64,000 nucleotides of DNA. Origin: Thermoplasmatota archaeon. GTDB taxonomy: Archaea; Thermoplasmatota; JAKEGO01. The notes under the pieces were generated by a model. It did no database searches. It was not told where the DNA came from and saw only the letters and a list, made by a program, of their open reading frames with translations. Location of the stretch: the NCBI GenBank assembly GCA_028279595.1, contig JANQNK010000013.1:53682-117681 (forward strand), read 5' to 3'. The position numbers were made by a program, and so were the translations under genes. Below are positions 41,468 to 52,059 of the stretch, in pieces. Every line of letters starts with the position of its first letter. Within the stretch, counting starts at the first letter, position 1.

Positions 41468-41917
41468 CTAGTATTGCCAATTTCGGAGTACGCTCTTGAT
41501 AACTGTCGGGACCTTCAAAAGGTCCGGGCCGAGCGATACCCGGTAGTTCGCCTTGTCGTGATAGGCGTAGGAGAGCTCCCCCACGCGGAAACCTCCGATC
41601 AGGATGGTCGCGTCCGGCAGTCCTCCGAGCTCGGAGAGGTCGTCCCTTCCGTCGGGGGTCATTGCGATCAACGGGTGCTCGAGGAGGTCGTCGAGGGTCC
41701 CCGGGACCGCCCTTTCCGAGACGTAATCGATGAAGGTCTGGACATCGTCGAACCTCTCGTGCCTTGGCACCTCGAAGACATGTCCGTCCTCCGTGTGCAC
41801 GGAAAGGTCGAAATCATGGTCCCTGAGAAGCTGTGCCGCGCTGAAGGGGATCTCCCAGTCGTCCCCATGTGCGGGAGGTATCGAGACCGTAGTGTTCCCT
41901 AGGACGATACGCGGCAT
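41468..41917 (-). CDS. Short Nep1/Emg1-like SPOUT methyltransferase-fold protein
   Basis: SVHTEDGHVFEV and ILIGGF..G...VSLG resemble Nep1 motifs; start set at ATG 41917. Confidence 0.55.
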   Translation of the reverse strand: MPRIVLGNTTVSIPPAHGDDWEIPFSAAQLLRDHDFDLSVHTEDGHVFEVPRHERFDDVQTFIDYVSERAVPGTLDDLLEHPLIAMTPDGRDDLSELGGLPDATILIGGFRVGELSYAYHDKANYRVSLGPDLLKVPTVIKSVLRNWQY

Positions 41918-41973
41918 CGTTATCCTTACGACCACAAAGCTAATGGATTTTTCCCCTTTCGTTGACGATCGAC

Positions 41974-42047
41974 GGGTTGAACAGGGATCTGACTGTGATG
42001 ATGCTTCGCAAGTCAGAATCCGTTTGAACGGACCGGGCCGTTCAACC
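41974..42047 (-). repeat. Degenerate copy of the tRNA-associated element
   Basis: GGGATCTGACTGTGATGATGCTTCGCA (+, from 41984) vs GGGATTTGACTGTGATGATGCTCCGCA (+, from 42198). Confidence 0.6.
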
Positions 42048-42183
42048 GCAGCCGCCGGGACCGGACGTCGATAGAAATTGACGAGAAGCGAGACGTCCGG
42101 GACAGTCGATTCCGGAGGGATCGACGTATGAAAGCAGATTTCCGCACCATCCTTCGTGGAGTCCTTGAATTGACGTGAGAAGG

Positions 42184-42309
42184 ATGGTGCAAGCACCGGG
42201 ATTTGACTGTGATGATGCTCCGCATCATCCAGGCTCGCGAATGGTCGATTCATGCTTACTTCATTCGCGACCACCCGGTCCAGTCTCGGGTTCGAAACCC
42301 GAGCACCAT
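42184..42309 (-). repeat. tRNA-Gly-associated structured element (inverted + direct tRNA 3' end, two-hairpin T-loop insert)
   Basis: Ends TCAAATCCCGGTGCTTGCACCA, cf. tRNA-Gly TCAAATCCCGGCGCCTGCACCA; see findings. Confidence 0.85.
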
Positions 42310-42342
42310 TCCCTGCATCGAGTGTTCATTGAGAAACGTGAA

Positions 42343-42419
42343 TGGTGCAGGCGCCGGGATTTGAACCCGGGTTAAAGGCTTGGAAGGCCTTGGTCATGGC
42401 CAGGCTAGACTACGCCTGC
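42343..42419 (-). tRNA. tRNA-Gly(TCC), CCA encoded
   Basis: GCAGGCG...AAGGC-CT-TCC-AA-GCCTT...CCGGG-TTCAAAT-CCCGG-CGCCTGC-A-CCA; TATA-like sequence upstream. Confidence 0.96.
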
Positions 42420-42459
42420 ACGCATTCCGCCAATCGCTATTATCTATATTAAACTCACG

Positions 42460-43305
42460 TCACTCGACCCGCAACGATTTCAGGAGGTCGAGGTTCATCC
42501 TGTAACCGCGCTCGCCGTCGTCGAGGGCTGGTGTTTCGAGGTAGCCAGGCACCTCAGCGAACCGGTCGTCGTTCACCAGCATCCTGAACGCCTCGACCCC
42601 GATCTCGCCCTTGCCGATGTGAGCGTGCCTGTCCTTCCGGGACCCCAGCAGCTTCTCAGTGTCGTTTAGATGGAATGCCTTCAATAGATCCAGCCCGATC
42701 GCGGAATCGAACGAGTCGAAGGTCTCGCCATAAACGTCCTCCTTCCGGATGTCGTAACCCGCGGTGAAGGTGTGGCAGGTATCATATGCGACGCCCACCC
42801 TCTCGCTGTCAGAGAGCATCTCGATGATCGTTCCGATCTGCTGGAAGGTGTAGCCGAGGACCGATCCCTGGCCCGCTGTCGTCTCTATGAGTATGTCAGC
42901 ACCGGAATAGTCCACAAGGCACTCGTTCAGGGCCTCGGCGATCCTGGCAAGACCACGCTCCTCACCTGAACCGACGTGTGCGCCGGGGTGGAAGATCAGC
43001 TGGTCGCATCCGATGAACGTGGCCCTGTCCATCTCGTCCCTGAACGCGGAGACCGCGCGCTTCCATTTCCCCTGGTCCGGCTGGGCCAAGTTTATCAGGT
43101 ATGAATCGTGGACCGCGATGTAGGGGAATCCGGAATCGGCGCGGACCGCCTTGAACGTCGCCGCCTCATCTTCCGTTATCGGCCGGGCGTGCCACTGGCT
43201 CGCGTTCTTGGAGAATATCTGGAGCACCTCGCAGCCGTCCTCGAGGGCGGGCGCGAAAGCGTTGTGCAGGCCTCCGGAAATGGATTCGTGGGCTCCGAGG
43301 AGCAT
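42460..43305 (-). CDS. nfo: Endonuclease IV
   Basis: LLGAHES, QIF, H.SYLINL, FHPG.H, ETTAGQG, DTCH, HLND, DRH, LETP. Confidence 0.95.
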   Translation of the reverse strand: MLLGAHESISGGLHNAFAPALEDGCEVLQIFSKNASQWHARPITEDEAATFKAVRADSGFPYIAVHDSYLINLAQPDQGKWKRAVSAFRDEMDRATFIGCDQLIFHPGAHVGSGEERGLARIAEALNECLVDYSGADILIETTAGQGSVLGYTFQQIGTIIEMLSDSERVGVAYDTCHTFTAGYDIRKEDVYGETFDSFDSAIGLDLLKAFHLNDTEKLLGSRKDRHAHIGKGEIGVEAFRMLVNDDRFAEVPGYLETPALDDGERGYRMNLDLLKSLRVE

Positions 43306-43325
43306 AGCACTGGGAAAGCCTCCGA

Positions 43326-43337
43326 CCTTATATAAGG
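43326..43337 (-). promoter_or_regulatory. TATA box for leaderless nfo
   Basis: CCTTATATAAGG palindrome ~25 nt upstream of ATG 43305. Confidence 0.6.
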
Positions 43338-43473
43338 AGCGCCTGAAGACCTGATCCGGGAATTTCATTATCTGGCCCCCTCGCCTGGCCTTATATACCG
43401 TCACCAAAAGTAATATAAAGCCATAAACCGGTGTTGGATACGGTCGCGGGACGCTATGGTGAAGGTGGGTTGA

Positions 43474-46455
43474 ATGTCGGTGTTGGTCCTGAGAACTTTT
43501 GCACTGTTTATGAGCGTAGTATTTCTGTCCGTATTGCTGATCGGAACGACCTCCGGATGGGAGGTCATTATCGACGATCCAGAGGCGGACGACGTCCTAT
43601 CCGGAATATACAACTGTACCGGAAGGGTCGAGGAGGACCTGTTCAACGATACTGGTGAGATACGGTTCGTGAACATCTCCATCGACGGCGGCGGCGAGGT
43701 CCCGGCCAAGGACGGCGGGAACGGCTTCTATGACTGGTACTTCGAATGGGACACCAGCCAGACCAGCGACGGCGACCATACCATGACAGCATATGTCTAT
43801 GTTGCCCGGACCACTGGCGGAGGAGGCGGAAATGGCTCCGGAGAGGAGGAGGACGTAACCCAGGAGGACTACGTCGAGGTCGAGGTCGAGGTCGACAACA
43901 AGATACCGGTTGCCGTCATAGATTCGATCACTCCGAATGCGACCGTTGTCGGCGACGTGGTTTCCTTTGTGGGACACGGTCAACCACCTCTCGGGCGTAC
44001 CATCGTCGATTATATCTGGTGGTCCTATCCGGGAGACGATGATCTGAGCAACAAGTCATCGTTCTCCACTTCTACGCTTTCTGTCGGCGTCCACACCGTT
44101 CGTTTCAAGGTCTGGGACAGCGAGGGAATGGCCTCGGTCCCGGTAACGATGGACATCGAGATCCTGGCGCCGGACGATGACGACTGGCCCACGTTCCACG
44201 GCGATTATTACCGCGCTGGAGCGGTCTCCGACGGTCCCGGTGACGGGAACATCAGGTGGAACTTCTCCACCGACAGCGGAGAGACCGAGTTCTTCGACCC
44301 GGTCATCTATCAGGACCGGGTCTACATCACCGAGAGCGTTGACACTGGAATGACCACATTCGGGGTGATCCACTGCCTCGATGTGAATGGTACCTTCAAC
44401 GACGCCCAGGGCGAGGCCTTCGGCCGTGCCGATCTGCTCTGGAACTTCACACTCCCCGAATATGCCCTGGCAGCGCCCGCAGTAAGGGACGGGAAGGTCT
44501 TCGTGGGTACCCAGTGGTCGAGCACTGAACCCAACTTCTACGCCCTCAACGCCTACAATGGAATGCATATCTGGAACCATACGACCAACGGACACATATG
44601 GTCCTCACCGGCCGTGACGGCGGAGATGGTCGTATTCACCGACTTCGATGGGAAGGTCATCGCCCTCGATCCCCAGGACGGGGACCTGTTATGGAAGACA
44701 GACCTCGAGTACCCGATACTCTCATCACCACTCATCGCCGGGATGAGGATATACATCCCCTCAACGGATGGGGAGCTCCACATCCTCAATGCGGTCAATG
44801 GCGAGAAGATATCCTCGACCGATCTCGGAGCTGGACATACCACTGCCCCAGTCTTTTGCGATAGAATGGTCTACTTCACAGCTCGTGGCGACGGCTCGAA
44901 CGACATGCTCGTAGCTAGGGACCGTTTCAGCATGGATGACGGCCGGCCAGGAGCATGGAAGTACACGCCGGGAGGCCGCATCTACACCACTCCCGTAGTC
45001 ACGGAGGACGCGATATACATAGTGAAGGATGACGGCACCGTCATAGCCGTCGACCTCGAAGGAAGCGAACTCTGGACACTGGAGCTGAACGACTCCGTTT
45101 CCGAGTCGCCAGCACTTGGAGGTTCCACTCTCTATGTCCCGGCCGAATCGGGAAAACTGTACGCTGTCAACATCGACAACGAGTCGGTGGACTGGAGCAT
45201 TGACCTTCCAGGAGAGACCACCTCACCCGCCATCAGCGGCGAATACCTGTACCTCGGCGCAGGCGGTTACGCCTATGCCATATGGGAGACGTCGATCCCC
45301 GAAGCGACCATCGAGGAGATCGAGGTCGCCATCATTCCGGAGGTGCCTCCGACCCAGTTCTGGTACCTGTTCGCGGTCGATTACGATCCATTGACGGTCT
45401 CTGACAACATCACGCTGACGTTCAACGGCAGCGCCACCGACCCCGAGGGATTGGACATCGTCGATCACGAATGGTCCTCGAGCCGGGATGGGATCCTCGG
45501 GAACAACATGACGATAGACGCAGCGCTCTTCCCAGGGACACATTCGATCAAGTTCAGGGCCAAGAACGAGGCTGATGTCTGGTCGTCGTTCGCGACGATG
45601 CAGGTCGTGGTGAACTCCAACATCAGACCCGAGGTGGAGGTCGACATCAACTATCCATACGTCGGCGAGTACACGGCCTTCGACCTGTCCGGGTCCAACG
45701 ACACGGACGGAGGTATCGAGCTCTTCAGACTCGACTTCGGAGACGGTTCCGACGTTGTCTTCTGGACTGACTCAGATTCGGCGGTCAACCACAGGTACAC
45801 CGACGAGGGCAATTACACGCTCACCGTCTGGGCATATGACGATTACGGACTCCTCAGCGAGGAGTACACTAGGAACGTGGCGATATCCGAGAGGGACACG
45901 ACCCCGGATCCCACGAACGGCGGGGAGGACAAGGACGATACCATCGACCAGACACTCCTGTTCGTGGTCGCCGGCGCACTGATCGCGGTCCTCGTCCTCG
46001 TAGCGATCATTCTGTTCGTCGTCCTTCCTGGAAGATCGAAGAAGAAGGACAGCATGGTCGAGTTCGAGGAGGACGAGAAGCTCCGGAAGGTTGGTCCGAT
46101 GATGGACATCGACGAGAAGGAGGAGAAGCTCGCGGCGATCGCTGCCAGGCTCGGAGAGGAGAAGGTCCTCGGAGCCAAGGGTACGGCTCCCCGCGGACGG
46201 AGGAAGGCGGCTCCGAAGAAGAAGCCAGCGCCAAAGGCGAAGCCCGCTCCGAAACCGAAGGCCGAGCCCGCTCCCGAGAAGGAACCTGAGCCGGAGCCAG
46301 AACCCGAACCTGAGCCCGAGCCGGAACCCGAACCTGAGCCCGAGCCTGAACCGGAACCCGAGCCGGAACCGGAGCCCGAGGAGGAAAAGGACCTCTCGGA
46401 GAAGCGCTCATCGCTCGAGGACCTGCTCTCCGACCTCGAAGGCATGCGCAAGTGA
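43474..46455 (+). CDS. Membrane-anchored surface protein: Ig-like, PKD-like, PQQ-like (BamB-type) beta-propeller, PKD, TM, K/P/E-rich tail
   Basis: WPTFHGD, SSPAV...G...W repeats, WSS..DG.LG, DFGDG, TM FVVAGALIAVLVLVAIILFVVL. Confidence 0.88.
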   Translation: MSVLVLRTFALFMSVVFLSVLLIGTTSGWEVIIDDPEADDVLSGIYNCTGRVEEDLFNDTGEIRFVNISIDGGGEVPAKDGGNGFYDWYFEWDTSQTSDGDHTMTAYVYVARTTGGGGGNGSGEEEDVTQEDYVEVEVEVDNKIPVAVIDSITPNATVVGDVVSFVGHGQPPLGRTIVDYIWWSYPGDDDLSNKSSFSTSTLSVGVHTVRFKVWDSEGMASVPVTMDIEILAPDDDDWPTFHGDYYRAGAVSDGPGDGNIRWNFSTDSGETEFFDPVIYQDRVYITESVDTGMTTFGVIHCLDVNGTFNDAQGEAFGRADLLWNFTLPEYALAAPAVRDGKVFVGTQWSSTEPNFYALNAYNGMHIWNHTTNGHIWSSPAVTAEMVVFTDFDGKVIALDPQDGDLLWKTDLEYPILSSPLIAGMRIYIPSTDGELHILNAVNGEKISSTDLGAGHTTAPVFCDRMVYFTARGDGSNDMLVARDRFSMDDGRPGAWKYTPGGRIYTTPVVTEDAIYIVKDDGTVIAVDLEGSELWTLELNDSVSESPALGGSTLYVPAESGKLYAVNIDNESVDWSIDLPGETTSPAISGEYLYLGAGGYAYAIWETSIPEATIEEIEVAIIPEVPPTQFWYLFAVDYDPLTVSDNITLTFNGSATDPEGLDIVDHEWSSSRDGILGNNMTIDAALFPGTHSIKFRAKNEADVWSSFATMQVVVNSNIRPEVEVDINYPYVGEYTAFDLSGSNDTDGGIELFRLDFGDGSDVVFWTDSDSAVNHRYTDEGNYTLTVWAYDDYGLLSEEYTRNVAISERDTTPDPTNGGEDKDDTIDQTLLFVVAGALIAVLVLVAIILFVVLPGRSKKKDSMVEFEEDEKLRKVGPMMDIDEKEEKLAAIAARLGEEKVLGAKGTAPRGRRKAAPKKKPAPKAKPAPKPKAEPAPEKEPEPEPEPEPEPEPEPEPEPEPEPEPEPEPEPEEEKDLSEKRSSLEDLLSDLEGMRK
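46281..46380 (+). repeat. Coding (Glu-Pro)n repeat, ~16 copies
   Basis: GARCCN hexamer array. Confidence 0.9.
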
Positions 46456-46534
46456 TCGGGCCAACGGGCCCACGGACACCCATTTCCTGTAAAGGTTTAT
46501 TTACGGTGATGTATATTATCCGCATCGGGACGGG

Positions 46535-47569
46535 ATGCCCTTGCAGGTCTCAGTGGACGTGGTCTCCGAAACCATCCGGAGAAGGTTCACGCTCTTCATC
46601 ATCATACTCGTAGGTGTCCTTGCTGTTGGCACCACCGGTTACGTGATCATCAAACTCTACTTCGAGGAGTATCATTCATCGGGGATAGAGCTCGCCGTCG
46701 ACGCGATCTACTGGACCATCATCACGCTGACTACGCTCGGATCGTATCCGGCAACAGTGGCACTGACGAGTGTTGTCGGAAAGGTGTTCACCGTCGTCGT
46801 CGTCATCATGGGCATCGTGCTCATCATTGTCGCCTTCCCACTGGCCCTCAGCCCCTGGTTCGAGAGCAGGATGAAGGAGATAATGAGCACGACCCGGGTC
46901 CCGTTGCCAAAGAGCAATCATGTCATAATCATCGGCTACAGCGACGTCGGGAAGGAGGTGGTCTCGAACCTTCGGAACTACGAGATCGACTTCCTCGTGA
47001 TCGAGAACAACCAGGCGAAGGTCAGGGAGATGATCTCGGACGAGGTCCCCGCGGTGATCGGTGACCCGACCAGGGAGGTCGTCCTCGAGAAGGCCCACCT
47101 CGACAGGGCGATAGCGATAATCTCCGTCGAGGACGACAGCGTGAACGCATTCGTCGCCCTCACTGCGAGCAGGCTCAGGCCCGACCTTAGGATTGTCTCG
47201 AGCATTCAGAACATCGGCAACCGCACGATCCTCAAGAGGGCCGGTACCACGCAGGCCCTCGCACCGAAGAGCACGGTCGGGGCGCTCCTCGCGAGCGAGG
47301 CCGTCGGCAGGCGGAAGGGGGAGCTCGCCCTGCCTGCCCAGGTCCTCGGAGACCTGAGCGTCGGGCACTTCCACGTCTCGGGCTCCTCCAACGTGGTCGG
47401 CAAGGGGGTCGGGGACGTAGGCTTCGATTCACTTCAATTGATGGTGGTGGGTGTATGGCGCCACGGGAACTTCGTCGTGGACCCGCACGGATGGACGCTG
47501 AAGGACGGCGATATCATACTGCTCCTCGGTACGGGGGAGCAGCTGGAGTTCGTGAAGAACATGTTCTAG
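46535..47569 (+). CDS. 2TM/1P ion channel with TrkA-N (RCK) and TrkA-C domains
   Basis: TM - YW.IITLTTLGSYP pore - TM, then IIIGYSDVG, GDPT. Confidence 0.88.
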   Translation: MPLQVSVDVVSETIRRRFTLFIIILVGVLAVGTTGYVIIKLYFEEYHSSGIELAVDAIYWTIITLTTLGSYPATVALTSVVGKVFTVVVVIMGIVLIIVAFPLALSPWFESRMKEIMSTTRVPLPKSNHVIIIGYSDVGKEVVSNLRNYEIDFLVIENNQAKVREMISDEVPAVIGDPTREVVLEKAHLDRAIAIISVEDDSVNAFVALTASRLRPDLRIVSSIQNIGNRTILKRAGTTQALAPKSTVGALLASEAVGRRKGELALPAQVLGDLSVGHFHVSGSSNVVGKGVGDVGFDSLQLMVVGVWRHGNFVVDPHGWTLKDGDIILLLGTGEQLEFVKNMF

Positions 47570-47579
47570 GGTGTGAACG

Positions 47580-48251
47580 ATGAGATGCATAGTCTGCGGA
47601 TACGGGGTCGTCGGGCGCAATGTCGCCGAAACGCTTGACCTTTACAGCATCGACTACGTCGTCGTCGAGAGGGACAGGAACGTGAAGGCCCAGCCGGGTG
47701 TCCCGATGATCCACGGGGACGCCAAGGACGAGGACGTCCTGAACAGGGCATCGATAGACGTCTCGGACATCCTGATAGCATGCACCGGCGTTGATGCAGA
47801 GAACGCGTTCATCACCCTCGCAGCGCAGGACCTCAATCCGGAGATCCGGGTCCTCTGCAGGGCCGCGAAGCTCGAGTCCGTCGACAAGCTGTACATGGCG
47901 GGCGCCGATTATGTCGTATCGCTGGCCCAGATAGCCGCGAAGAACCTGGTGCGGCTTGCTGTACTGCCATACAAGTCGGACGTCCAGGACTATCTGACAG
48001 TTACCAAGGAGGTCGTCGTAACGACCATCGAGCTTCCCAGCGGTTCGGAGTACGTCGGCAGGACGATCCACGGGAGCCAGCTGGAGGAGATCACGGGGGT
48101 CAGGATCATCGGGTTCCAGCGATCGGGAGCCATTATCGCCAACCCGACCGGCGACGCCCCGTTCATCGAGGGGGATGTCATGTTCGTCGCGGGGTCCTCG
48201 AAGGACCTCAACACGTTCGGGCGGGTAGTGCGGGGAGAACAGCTTTCCTGA
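47580..48251 (+). CDS. Soluble TrkA-N/TrkA-C (RCK) regulatory subunit
   Basis: VCGYGVVG, HGDA, D.EN, AGADYVV, C-terminal RCK_C. Confidence 0.88.
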   Translation: MRCIVCGYGVVGRNVAETLDLYSIDYVVVERDRNVKAQPGVPMIHGDAKDEDVLNRASIDVSDILIACTGVDAENAFITLAAQDLNPEIRVLCRAAKLESVDKLYMAGADYVVSLAQIAAKNLVRLAVLPYKSDVQDYLTVTKEVVVTTIELPSGSEYVGRTIHGSQLEEITGVRIIGFQRSGAIIANPTGDAPFIEGDVMFVAGSSKDLNTFGRVVRGEQLS

Positions 48252-48310
48252 ACCACTGGCCCTACGTACACATCTATAAATACGGCTGAGCCGAATGGCC
48301 AGAGCGAGGG

Positions 48311-49093
48311 ATTGAGATAAGCGCAACTGGAACCGTACTCCATTCCTTCTACAGGGCATACGCCAACAAGCTCATCAGGGAGGTCAGGAAGGGGCCCATC
48401 CCCGAGCACATAGCGATAATCATGGACGGGAACCGCCGTTTCGCAGAGCGTATCGGCATGAACACCGCACAGGGCCACGCCTTCGGGAAATCCAGGCTCG
48501 AGAAGGTCCTCGAGTGGGCGGAGGAGATCGACGTCAAGATCCTCACGGTCTACGGTTTCTCGACCGAGAACTTCACCCGCACCGAGGAGGAGATCGACGA
48601 GCTCATGGACCTCTTCGAGCGGAGCTTCACGAGCGTCGTCGACGACGAGCGCATCAAGGAGAAGAAGGTCAGGATCACCGCGATCGGCGCTATCGACAGC
48701 CTCCCCGAACGGGTCCAGAAGGCGATCAGGAGTGCGGAGGAGGCCACGAAGGACAACGACAACTTCCGTCTCAACATCGCCATCGCCTACGGCGGACGGG
48801 AGGAGCTGATATCCGCGTTCAAGGCGATCGGGGAGCGGATCGAGAAGGGCGAGATCACGGCCGATTCGATAGACCAGGAGGTCATCGACAACCACCTGTA
48901 CACGCACGGTCTCCCCGATCCAGACCTCGTGCTGAGGACATCGGGTGAGGTGCGCGTCTCGAACTTCCTCCTCTGGCAGCTGGCGTACTCCGAACTCTAC
49001 TTCTCCGACGTCTACTGGCCCGATTTCAGGAGGGTCGACTTCCTTCGGGCAGTGAGGACGTACCAGAAGCGCAAGAGACGATACGGGAAGTGA
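48311..49093 (+). CDS. uppS: cis-prenyltransferase (polyprenyl diphosphate synthase)
   Basis: PEHIAIIMDGNRR, FSTENF.R, YGGR.E, RTSGE.R.SNFL.WQ..Y, RRYG; the first motif begins upstream of the first ATG, so the start is probably ATT 48311 or ATA 48317. Confidence 0.92.
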   Translation: MEISATGTVLHSFYRAYANKLIREVRKGPIPEHIAIIMDGNRRFAERIGMNTAQGHAFGKSRLEKVLEWAEEIDVKILTVYGFSTENFTRTEEEIDELMDLFERSFTSVVDDERIKEKKVRITAIGAIDSLPERVQKAIRSAEEATKDNDNFRLNIAIAYGGREELISAFKAIGERIEKGEITADSIDQEVIDNHLYTHGLPDPDLVLRTSGEVRVSNFLLWQLAYSELYFSDVYWPDFRRVDFLRAVRTYQKRKRRYGK

Positions 49094-49151
49094 ACTCCCG
49101 TACGGAACCTTCTACATATCCGACTAATACCATTCTATCCTAGACATCGAT

Positions 49152-49838
49152 ATGTGCGGACTCTTCGTGCGCGAGCTCCCCGCTCCGGAACGGCCACGGG
49201 AGCGTCTTGTGACATCTGGGGCTGCTAGTCTCAGCGACAGGGAGTTACTAGCGATCATTCTCCTCTCTGGAGGGGCGGACGAATCGGTACTCTCCCTTTC
49301 TGGACGCCTGCTTTCGAACTTCGACGGACGGCTCCGAAGGTTGTTCAATGCAGACGTCCAGGAACTGCTCTCTGTCGACGGTATTGGGATGGCGAAGGCT
49401 TGTCAGCTGAAGGCGGTCGGGGAGTTGGCACGTCGGCTCGACGTGACAGAGGTAACTGATACTATCGTCTCTCCGAGGGACGCCGCCATGCGCCTGATGC
49501 CCCGGATGAGAGACCTCGACCGGGAACGCCTCGTCGTGCTGCCACTGGACGTCAAGAACCACCTGATCGACGGATCGGAGATCGTCGTCTCGGTCGGATC
49601 CCTCGACGGAAGCCCTGTGCGACCAAGGGACGTGTTCAGGATCGCTCTCCTGAAGAACGCCGCCTCGATAATCCTCGGACACAACCATCCCTCCGGTGAT
49701 CCGGAGCCTAGCGGTTCCGACGTCGCCGTCAGCCGGAGGATAGCATCGGTCGGTGACGAACTCGGTATCCAGCTCCTCGACCACCTAGTAATCGGGGACG
49801 GCCGCTACGTCAGCCTCAAGGACAGAGGTCTCTTCTGA
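49152..49838 (+). CDS. radC: RadC-family JAB domain protein
   Basis: RPRERL...LS..ELLAI, HhH GIG.AK, HNHPSG...PS..D, LLDH. Confidence 0.92.
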   Translation: MCGLFVRELPAPERPRERLVTSGAASLSDRELLAIILLSGGADESVLSLSGRLLSNFDGRLRRLFNADVQELLSVDGIGMAKACQLKAVGELARRLDVTEVTDTIVSPRDAAMRLMPRMRDLDRERLVVLPLDVKNHLIDGSEIVVSVGSLDGSPVRPRDVFRIALLKNAASIILGHNHPSGDPEPSGSDVAVSRRIASVGDELGIQLLDHLVIGDGRYVSLKDRGLF

Positions 49839-49887
49839 CAGTCTCAAAAGGTTTTTCTACGGGCTTGGGAATTGCCGTTTCCACCGT

Positions 49888-49958
49888 GCTGAGGTGTCAG
49901 AGAGGCTATGAGCCCGGCTGCAGACCGGCTTACGGGGGTTCAAATCCCCCCCTCAGCT
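49888..49958 (+). tRNA. tRNA-Cys(GCA), CCA not encoded
   Basis: GCTGAGG...CCGG-CT-GCA-GA-CCGG...GGGGG-TTCAAAT-CCCCC-CCTCAGC-T (U73). Confidence 0.93.
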
Positions 49959-49977
49959 CTTATTATCCTCTCATTAA

Positions 49978-50237
49978 CGAGGGGGGATTGTCGAACCCCG
50001 GAATGGGCGGGGTGTTTACGAATGATGTAAGCGAGTGTAAGCCATTCGTAAACCCGAACGATACATAGTATCGTTACGGTCAAATCCCCCCCTCAGCTCC
50101 AATTTTCTTAGAATTATCGAGGGGGATCCCGAACCCCTGAATGGGCGGGGTGTTCGTGATTGATGTCATTATCCTGCAGATCAATCGCGAACCCGGATGA
50201 CTCGCAGCGTCATCAAGGTAAAAAACCCCCCTCAGCT
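49978..50237 (+). repeat. Two tandem tRNA-Cys-associated structured elements (49978-50101, 50118-50237)
   Basis: Each ends in a copy of the tRNA-Cys 3' end (...CCCCCCTCAGCT); 140-nt period; see findings. Confidence 0.88.
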
Positions 50238-50304
50238 CTTCTTCCTTTCCGACCAGACCCAAAATTTCTAGTAGTCCCTCCCAAATCAATTTTTCGGACC
50301 TTCA

Positions 50305-50775
50305 ATGAACTCGAGGAACACGTCAGATAATCGAAGGAGAATAAGAAATCCCGATGCAGAACGAAGATGGAGAACTACTGGAAGGCGGAAATTGTCAAAG
50401 GATATTTACTGGGGAATGCTGATCCTTTCGATCACTGTCATCTTATTGGCAGTCATCATCTCCTTTTATGATCCCCATGAGGAAGAACATGATCCATTGA
50501 ACATTTCAGTTTTTAATCGGTCGAATAGTAATATCGAATATAACCTAACAGTCAACAACTCCAAAGATGAAACAATCTTTCAAATAAACGATTCCTTAGA
50601 GAGAGGTGGTGCCGATTATTATCAGGATTTGACAAAGAAACGCGGTAAATACAATGTGACCATTCGATTAGACGACAATCGAACATATTCGAAAGAGGTT
50701 AAGGTCGGATCACCAATCACAGGGATTTTCATCATAATTTATAATGACAACATTTTAGTTGAGCAAATTGTATGA
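50305..50775 (+). CDS. AT-rich single-TM hypothetical protein with Ig-like C-domain
   Basis: Basic N-terminus, TM, beta-rich domain with NxS/T sequons; low GC. Confidence 0.65.
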   Translation: MNSRNTSDNRRRIRNPDAERRWRTTGRRKLSKDIYWGMLILSITVILLAVIISFYDPHEEEHDPLNISVFNRSNSNIEYNLTVNNSKDETIFQINDSLERGGADYYQDLTKKRGKYNVTIRLDDNRTYSKEVKVGSPITGIFIIIYNDNILVEQIV

Positions 50776-51764: not shown

Positions 51765-51983
51765 ATGGGGTTCGAAGACCTGACCGAGTTAGACAGGCGA
51801 GTGTACGAGTACGTCAAGAAGTACGACTTCGAGACATACAAGTGGTCGACCCCTGCGGCCGCCCGTGAACTGGGTGCCACGGAGCAGGAGGTCTATCAGG
51901 CCCTCTGCAACCTCGCCAAGCACGTCCGGGACAATATCTGGATACATTACAAGGACGGCGGGATCCGGATCTCGGCAGAATAG
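51765..51983 (+). CDS. Small HTH-like hypothetical protein
   Basis: GGGTGGT SD + ATG; WSTPAAARELG...VYQAL; TTATAA upstream. Confidence 0.7.
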   Translation: MGFEDLTELDRRVYEYVKKYDFETYKWSTPAAARELGATEQEVYQALCNLAKHVRDNIWIHYKDGGIRISAE

Positions 51984-52059
51984 CGGGGTAGGGTAGCCAG
52001 GAAATCCCGACGGGCTCATAACCCGTAGATCAGTGGTTCAAATCCACTCCCCGCTACCA
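51982..52059 (+). tRNA. Initiator tRNA-Met(CAT), CCA encoded
   Basis: A1:U72, anticodon stem ACGGG/CCCGT with three G:C pairs, CT-CAT-AA loop, AGTGG-TTCAAAT-CCACT. Confidence 0.95.

Follow-up and report, generated by a model that had tools for sequence, protein, structure and literature searches.

Fold-back modules resembling tRNA tails behind archaeal tRNA genes: a candidate family of small site-specific insertion elements

What are the gene-less modules of about 150 bases that sit behind the cysteine and glycine tRNA genes of an uncultured Thermoplasmata archaeon, each carrying a spare copy and a mirror copy of the tRNA's own tail around two conserved hairpins? The question was raised by three such copies, Cys-1, Cys-2 and Gly-1, in a 64,000-nucleotide stretch of DNA (hereafter the window; contig JANQNK010000013.1, positions 53,682 to 117,681, assembly GCA_028279595.1), which belongs to a 2.29-Mb, 86%-complete metagenome-assembled genome (G000). 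The modules look like tiny site-specific insertion elements of an undescribed family, although how they move, or whether they act as RNA, is unproven. The first-pass annotation had proposed either a non-autonomous element targeting the T-loop, mobilised in trans by a tyrosine recombinase or an HUH-type enzyme, or a small-RNA array cotranscribed with the tRNA, in which variable 18-19 nt loops would serve as guides or spacers. Its description of the anatomy, i.e., an inverted and a direct copy of the host tRNA 3' third with a fixed two-hairpin insert at the T-loop, is correct, as are its view that the family is not a named one, with respect to Rfam, and its attribution to Thermoplasmatota, whereas its interpretation is only partly supported.

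Anatomy of the repeat units

The host tRNA genes were identified with ARAGORN and Rfam RF00005, and the three copies, which belong to one family (type A), were delimited on the sequence (Table 1). The inserts between the T-stem 5' strand plus T and the rest of the T-loop are 66, 67 and 66 nt in Cys-1, Cys-2 and Gly-1, respectively. In tRNA sense, each unit begins with the tRNA's own T-loop-to-3'-end, followed by a few trailer bases that are typical of the module type, and continues with an AT- and T-rich spacer of 16-35 nt. Next comes a degenerate inverted copy of the whole T-arm, acceptor 3' strand and trailer, which ends in the invariant GAA followed by CCC or CTC, the complement of the T-stem 5' strand and the start of the T-loop. 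A loop of 7-11 nt leads to a direct copy of the T-stem 5' strand plus one T, to the family-specific core formed by hairpins P3 (11-13 bp, 17-19 nt loop) and P4 (3+8 bp, one bulged base, triloop), and finally to the T-loop-to-3'-end again.

One correction to the initial picture is that the direct T-stem 5' strand also pairs with the end of the inverted copy to form a further hairpin, P2, and that the inverted copy is a whole inverted target. The element consequently has two alternative predicted folds, a four-helix cloverleaf or two T-arm-like hairpins. Each of the three copies folds far better than shuffled sequences as a single strand (z -6.8, -3.0 and -5.4 for Cys-1, Cys-2 and Gly-1). When one repeat unit is folded in silico as a closed single strand, it gives four hairpins that abut with 0-4 unpaired bases in most units, around an almost perfect four-way junction (z -1.6 to -6.9). 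The branch point coincides with the edge of the direct repeat, which is the presumed exchange point, and the long hairpin is a duplex replica of the target site.

Table 1. Locations of the modules, their host tRNA genes and associated features. Positions refer to the window unless a contig of G000 is given.
Feature	Location	Strand	Description
tRNA-Cys(GCA)	49888-49959	+	Host gene; last 20 nt (49940-49959, T-loop to 3' end) form the proximal direct repeat; no CCA encoded
Cys-1	49978-50101	+	Inverted arm, core and distal repeat
Cys-1 spacer	49960-49977	+	AT-rich, T-rich trailer; loop of hairpin H0 when the inverted arm pairs with the tRNA end
Cys-1 inverted arm	49978-49995	+	Degenerate reverse complement of the T-arm and the start of the acceptor 3' strand; ends in the family-invariant GAA, complementary to T-loop TTC
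Cys-1 hairpin P2	49995-50013	+	Inverted T-stem strand, 7-nt loop, direct T-stem 5' strand plus T
Cys-1 hairpin P3	50014-50053	+	11-bp stem, 18-nt variable loop
Cys-1 hairpin P4	50054-50079	+	3+8 bp, one bulged base, triloop; last base abuts the direct repeat
Cys-1 distal direct repeat	50080-50101	+	T-loop to 3' end of tRNA-Cys, followed by CCA
Cys-2 unit	50102-50239	+	Older second unit: spacer 50102-50117, inverted arm from 50118, core 50131-50226, distal repeat with degenerate T-loop (about 50219-50239); covariance-model hit of 84.6 bits
tRNA-Gly(UCC)	42343-42419	-	Host gene, CCA encoded
Gly-1 unit	42185-42342	-	Spacer 42310-42342; inverted arm, core and distal repeat 42185-42309; covariance-model core 42200-42293, hit of 91 bits
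Type-B module	42048-42184	-	Hairpin of the tRNA end plus trailer with its inverted copy, two further hairpins, copy of T-stem 3' strand plus acceptor
Type-A remnant	41974-42047	-	Decayed; 3' half of P4 and a degenerate T-loop recognisable
tRNA-Met	51982-52059	+	
Repeat-like stretch	46280-46380		Attracts very many unrelated contigs in three coral metagenome runs (depth up to 315, many loose ends); looks like a low-complexity or widely shared repeat inside a coding region
tRNA unnamed by ARAGORN	C7:44983-45061		Probably contains an intron
Integrase island, tRNA-Pro(UGG)	C7:7343-21950		Distal repeat followed by a small one-hairpin module
Integrase island, tRNA-Arg(UCG)	C14:112203-117640		Carries a reverse-oriented tRNA-Ala; ends in a type-A unit plus a type-B unit
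Type-D module, tRNA-Met	C11:169837		
Type-D module, tRNA-Glu(UUC)	C19:33349		
Type-D module, tRNA-Arg(CCG)	C19:78561		
Type-D module, tRNA-Asp	C4:143818		

Distribution, covariation and pairing with the host tRNA

A covariance model built from 11 aligned cores finds 16 strong copies in the genome, at E 1e-19 to 2e-7, and all of them are co-oriented with a tRNA. Fifteen lie in the array directly behind a tRNA gene, namely Cys (two copies), Gly(UCC), Gly(GCC), Leu(UAG), Leu(UAA), Ser(GCU), Ser(CGA), Ser(GGA), Lys(CUU) (two copies), Arg(UCU), Thr(CGU), and two behind the intron-bearing tRNA that ARAGORN could not name. The sixteenth lies at the distal seam of an integrase island in tRNA-Arg(UCG). 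Among 60 relatives examined, only one genome carries the family, that of the same family-level lineage but another genus (G001, 'Thermoplasmata archaeon PMV_4.75'), with 7 copies behind His, Arg(UCU), Arg(GCG), Leu and the same unnamed tRNA, several of them at contig ends. A pattern scan of one genome per species across 185,579 species found only that MAG. A metagenome scan gave 78 loci, of which only one contig (L084) is a true member, others including a set of bacterial terminator hairpins behind tRNA-Ser and a coding sequence. A scan of viral contigs with the P4 pattern gave 3 loci, rejected as chance since they score only 17.7 bits with the model. In Rfam 15, only the tRNAs match at gathering threshold, nothing covers the modules except noise of 14.7 bits or less, and no description of such modules was found in the literature searched. 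The modules also break assemblies in G001, where copies lie at contig ends. In G000, tRNA-Ser(CGA) at the end of contig C1 overlaps in sequence with the type-A core at the end of contig C15, and the two contigs are probably adjacent.

Structural conservation is strong. On 24 copies, 94.6% of cells pair against 78% in shuffles, 17 of 22 pairs show changes on both sides, none of 500 shuffles reaches any of these measures, and slid partners give 33-48%. Non-Watson-Crick stem cells comprise 13 G.T/T.G against 2 A.C, which favours the tRNA-sense strand as the one that folds, although the copies are related and this bias is only indicative. The P2 stem follows the host T-stem: hosts with CCGGG (Gly(UCC), His, Arg(UCU) of G001) give 5 of 5 identical bases, and the host with the unusual CGGAG stem gives the matching variant in both genomes. 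The inverted arm pairs with its own tRNA end at a mean of -26.4 kcal/mol, against -17.7 for other tRNAs' ends, and 11 of 16 arms pair best with their own tRNA, the exceptions being tRNAs that share the same last six bases. The arm pairs at least as well with the proximal copy plus trailer as with the distal copy, and clearly better where the distal one has diverged, as in Arg(UCU) of G001 (-31.5 against -20.1), the second unit of the unnamed tRNA, and Gly(GCC). By contrast, the proposed guide or spacer role of the 18-19 nt P3 loops is not supported, since these loops drift by point changes among close copies and give only chance-level 13-mer matches in the genome.

Signatures of insertion and possible mobilisation

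About 20 of the 42 tRNA genes have downstream copies of their own 3' end, and att-like direct repeats of the host tRNA from the T-loop to the 3' end, plus a few trailer bases, bound every unit. Besides type A, at least two other module types share the same grammar. Type B has a conserved loop motif in its first hairpin, a GTCGAT/ATCGAC hairpin and a third hairpin; it is also confined to G000 and G001 among 401 Thermoplasmatota, and its pattern is absent from viral contigs. The simpler type D (about 85-105 nt, also at L084) consists of a spacer, a 10-11 nt inverted arm, one long hairpin and a repeat starting at the T-stem 3' strand; it often occurs in tandem and, as a closed unit, would fold into a plain rod. 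Arrays are mixed. They run tRNA-A-B at Gly(UCC), Gly(GCC), Leu(UAG) and Leu(UAA), and A-A at Cys, Lys and the intron-bearing tRNA, while B stands alone at Leu(CAG) and a decayed A lies outside B at Gly(UCC). The trailer after each repeat is typical of the module that follows it, and outer copies (Cys-2, Lys-2, the Gly remnant) have more degenerate T-loops, as expected if the newest insert lies next to the gene. For Cys and Gly(GCC), the functional gene lacks CCA while the displaced outer copy has it, as if the 3' end had been replaced.

Occupancy differs between the two genera. tRNA-Gly(UCC) carries A, B and a remnant in G000 but B+B in G001, and tRNA-Arg(UCU) carries unlike type-A subtypes in the two genomes, while the copies of G001 at different tRNAs resemble one another. 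In a same-order genome (G002), tRNA-Cys is essentially empty; this genome, which lacks types A and B, still has behind a tRNA-Gly an 8-bp hairpin between the CCA plus trailer and a sequence about 22 nt downstream, so that the motif of a tRNA end paired to a downstream inverted copy may be wider than the families modelled here. Integrase islands of G000 use the same sublocation, as the 14.5-kb island in tRNA-Pro(UGG) has an 18-bp repeat starting in the T-loop but no inverted copy; the fold-back is therefore special to the small modules.

Altogether, these findings led to a reading, which we consider about as likely as not, in which the modules are gene-less, non-autonomous insertion units of about 140-160 bp that were added one after another at the T-loop of tRNA genes by site-specific recombination. 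In this view, each unit brings its own replacement copy of the T-loop-to-3'-end, so that the gene stays intact, and pushes the previous 3' end outward as a direct repeat. Mobilisation in trans by a tyrosine recombinase specific for the T-arm, either island-borne or host-encoded, is inferred and has not been shown, as is the idea that a folded single strand is the substrate or is needed for propagation. Seven tyrosine recombinases are present in G000, which makes such an enzyme the most economical agent, yet no integrase gene lies next to any type-A copy, none has been tied to the family, and G001, only 73% complete, gave no tyrosine-recombinase hit at all. Neither alternative joints between empty and filled loci nor an excised form were seen in the one metagenome that holds the organism, a coral metagenome whose contigs reproduce the region without differences, but this comparison, made together with two sister runs over 41500-50700, rests on contigs only and is a weak test. 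More than 12 different tRNA species are occupied and both arms match each host, and a simple attP element does not explain how a new target is acquired. Some spread may need no change, because Leu and Gly(UCC) share their last six bases and the same trailer-based stem, and gene conversion against the adjacent tRNA is a possibility. The unnamed tRNA has two adjacent G.U pairs in its acceptor stem and a 3' strand equal to that of the Pro/Met/Ile type, which could be a footprint of a 3' third replaced by an element aimed at another tRNA. Moreover, tyrosine integrases acting on double-stranded attP would need no hairpins, and a 150-bp double-stranded circle is implausibly stiff; the single-strand substrate is therefore an inference from analogy. 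The confinement of types A and B to one family-level lineage is also unusual for freely moving elements. A bolder version, which we regard as unlikely but not excluded, is that the modules are a new class of minimal mobile DNA carrying, instead of a gene, a folded, double-stranded replica of their own target, recombined as a folded single strand into the T-loop by a host or island recombinase and re-tailored to each tRNA.

The main rival is a resident structured RNA, transcribed with or just after the tRNA, released by tRNA-processing enzymes, and serving as a decoy, regulator or chaperone. This possibility, which appears less likely, explains the compensatory covariation and the strand bias equally well, and the intact helices and near-identical repeats could equally reflect a function in place. 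The topology is cloverleaf-like, the helices are intact in all copies despite 30-40% sequence divergence, and a possible orthologous pair at tRNA-Leu in the two genera differs by a compensatory change in P4. It explains less well the turnover between genera and the decay of outer copies. In addition, the closing helix often includes the discriminator, CCA or trailer bases (in Gly-1, Ser, His and Arg), or covers only 4 acceptor pairs (in Cys-1), and so is not an acceptor-like end, while the spacers, on inspection, carry T-runs right after the tRNA and no consistent archaeal TATA box. There is no Rfam relative, and inspection of the sequence gave no support to a ribozyme (a CUGAUGA-like string in P4 is not conserved and lies inside a perfect helix), to a bulge-helix-bulge intron (no such motif at the boundaries of one unit) or to a C/D-box or H/ACA arrangement.

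The remaining possibilities are each contradicted by at least one observation. Inert scars of larger integrase-bearing islands, an unlikely reading, would fit the presence of several tRNA-integrated islands with tyrosine integrases, one of which has a type-A and a type-B copy at its distal seam, and the left ends of two islands by eye loosely resemble type-B spacers; the islands in tRNA-Pro(UGG) and tRNA-Arg(UCG) are related, and their left ends are alike. However, independent deletions would not repeatedly give units of 140-160 bp with the same four helices, neutral scars would not keep such pairing with compensatory changes, and the large islands have plain repeats without an inverted copy or these hairpins. 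A search for a parent type-A element with cargo at the tRNA-Arg(UCG) seam found no second copy of that repeat. Single-strand transposition of the IS200/IS605 or REP/RAYT kind, in which the inverted arm would act as an internal guide, is suggested by the hairpin-rich, strand-biased and orientation-specific organisation and by the internal complementarity to the target. It is nonetheless very doubtful, as no Y1 HUH transposase (PF01797) was detected in the incomplete G000 and G001 genomes while G002, which lacks the modules, has one; those elements make no 20-25 bp direct repeats, and the target-matching stretch here is 8-12 nt or longer, not 4 nt. The spread of a viroid-like or retrozyme-like RNA copied back into DNA seems remote: although the unit folds compactly when circularised in silico and the tRNA 3' ends recall primer-binding sites, no reverse transcriptase (PF00078) was found in G000, G001 or G002, no ribozyme family matches, and the inverted arm pairs with genomic trailer bases beyond the mature tRNA end.

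Comparison with known systems

If the modules are mobile, they would be among the smallest site-specific integrating units known and the first whose arms are copies of the host gene they sit behind, which bears on how tRNA genes become integration hot spots, on how tRNA gene fragments and T-loop interruptions arise in archaea, and possibly on structure-guided recombination as a tool. If they are RNAs instead, they are a new tRNA-linked RNA class. In practice, annotators should mask them so that they are not miscalled as tRNA pseudogenes or as att sites of missing islands.

The tRNA-linked repeats of E. coli tyrT (rtT RNA, RF00391) also lie downstream of a tRNA gene and contain part of the tRNA 3' end, but their architecture and lineage are different, and that case involves one locus, not half of all tRNA genes. 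MITEs and foldback transposons are likewise small, non-coding and repeated, with hairpin-forming inverted arms. Here, however, the arms are copies of the neighbouring host gene and differ from copy to copy, the repeats are 20-25 bp att-like copies rather than short target-site duplications, and location and orientation are strictly tRNA-bound. Like the modules, integron attC sites are probably imperfect palindromes conserved in structure rather than sequence, with strand-specific folding and a bulged base, in arrays that grow at one fixed site with which only the outer ends of the palindrome share sequence. In the modules, the fixed site is a tRNA T-arm, there is no cassette ORF and no R''/R' core motif of the attC kind, and the P3 stem reads with the opposite polarity; no integron integrase was found, the best TIGR02249 hit being 89.7 bits against a cut-off of 265, on a XerA-like gene.

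The folded single-stranded attP of CTXphi and other IMEX elements (PMC5357621), which probably comprises two inverted att-like sites about 90 nt apart and is probably integrated by host Xer, offers another parallel. In the modules, two inverted copies of the target site lie 7-11 nt apart, or about 75-80 nt if the P3/P4 core is counted, arrays are tandem, and the predicted integrated order (hybrid site, element, inverted site, loop, hybrid site) matches what is seen. Yet the target is a tRNA gene and not dif, a 66-nt two-hairpin core sits exactly at the presumed exchange point, and there is no phage genome and no evidence that XerA is involved. Other close systems are integrative elements that appear to use tyrosine integrases at the T-loop sublocation of tRNA genes, and their integrase-less derivatives (cis-mobilisable elements, CIMEs) with tandem accretion, although a review of archaeal integrases mentions no such modules (PMC8371274). 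These share the direct repeat of the tRNA from the T-loop to the 3' end, restoration of the gene by element-borne sequence, tandem elements at one tRNA with the newest next to the gene, and the absence of an integrase inside the unit. The modules differ from them in that units are only about 150 bp, that every unit carries an inverted copy of the target and covarying hairpins, and that one core family occupies more than 12 different tRNA species.
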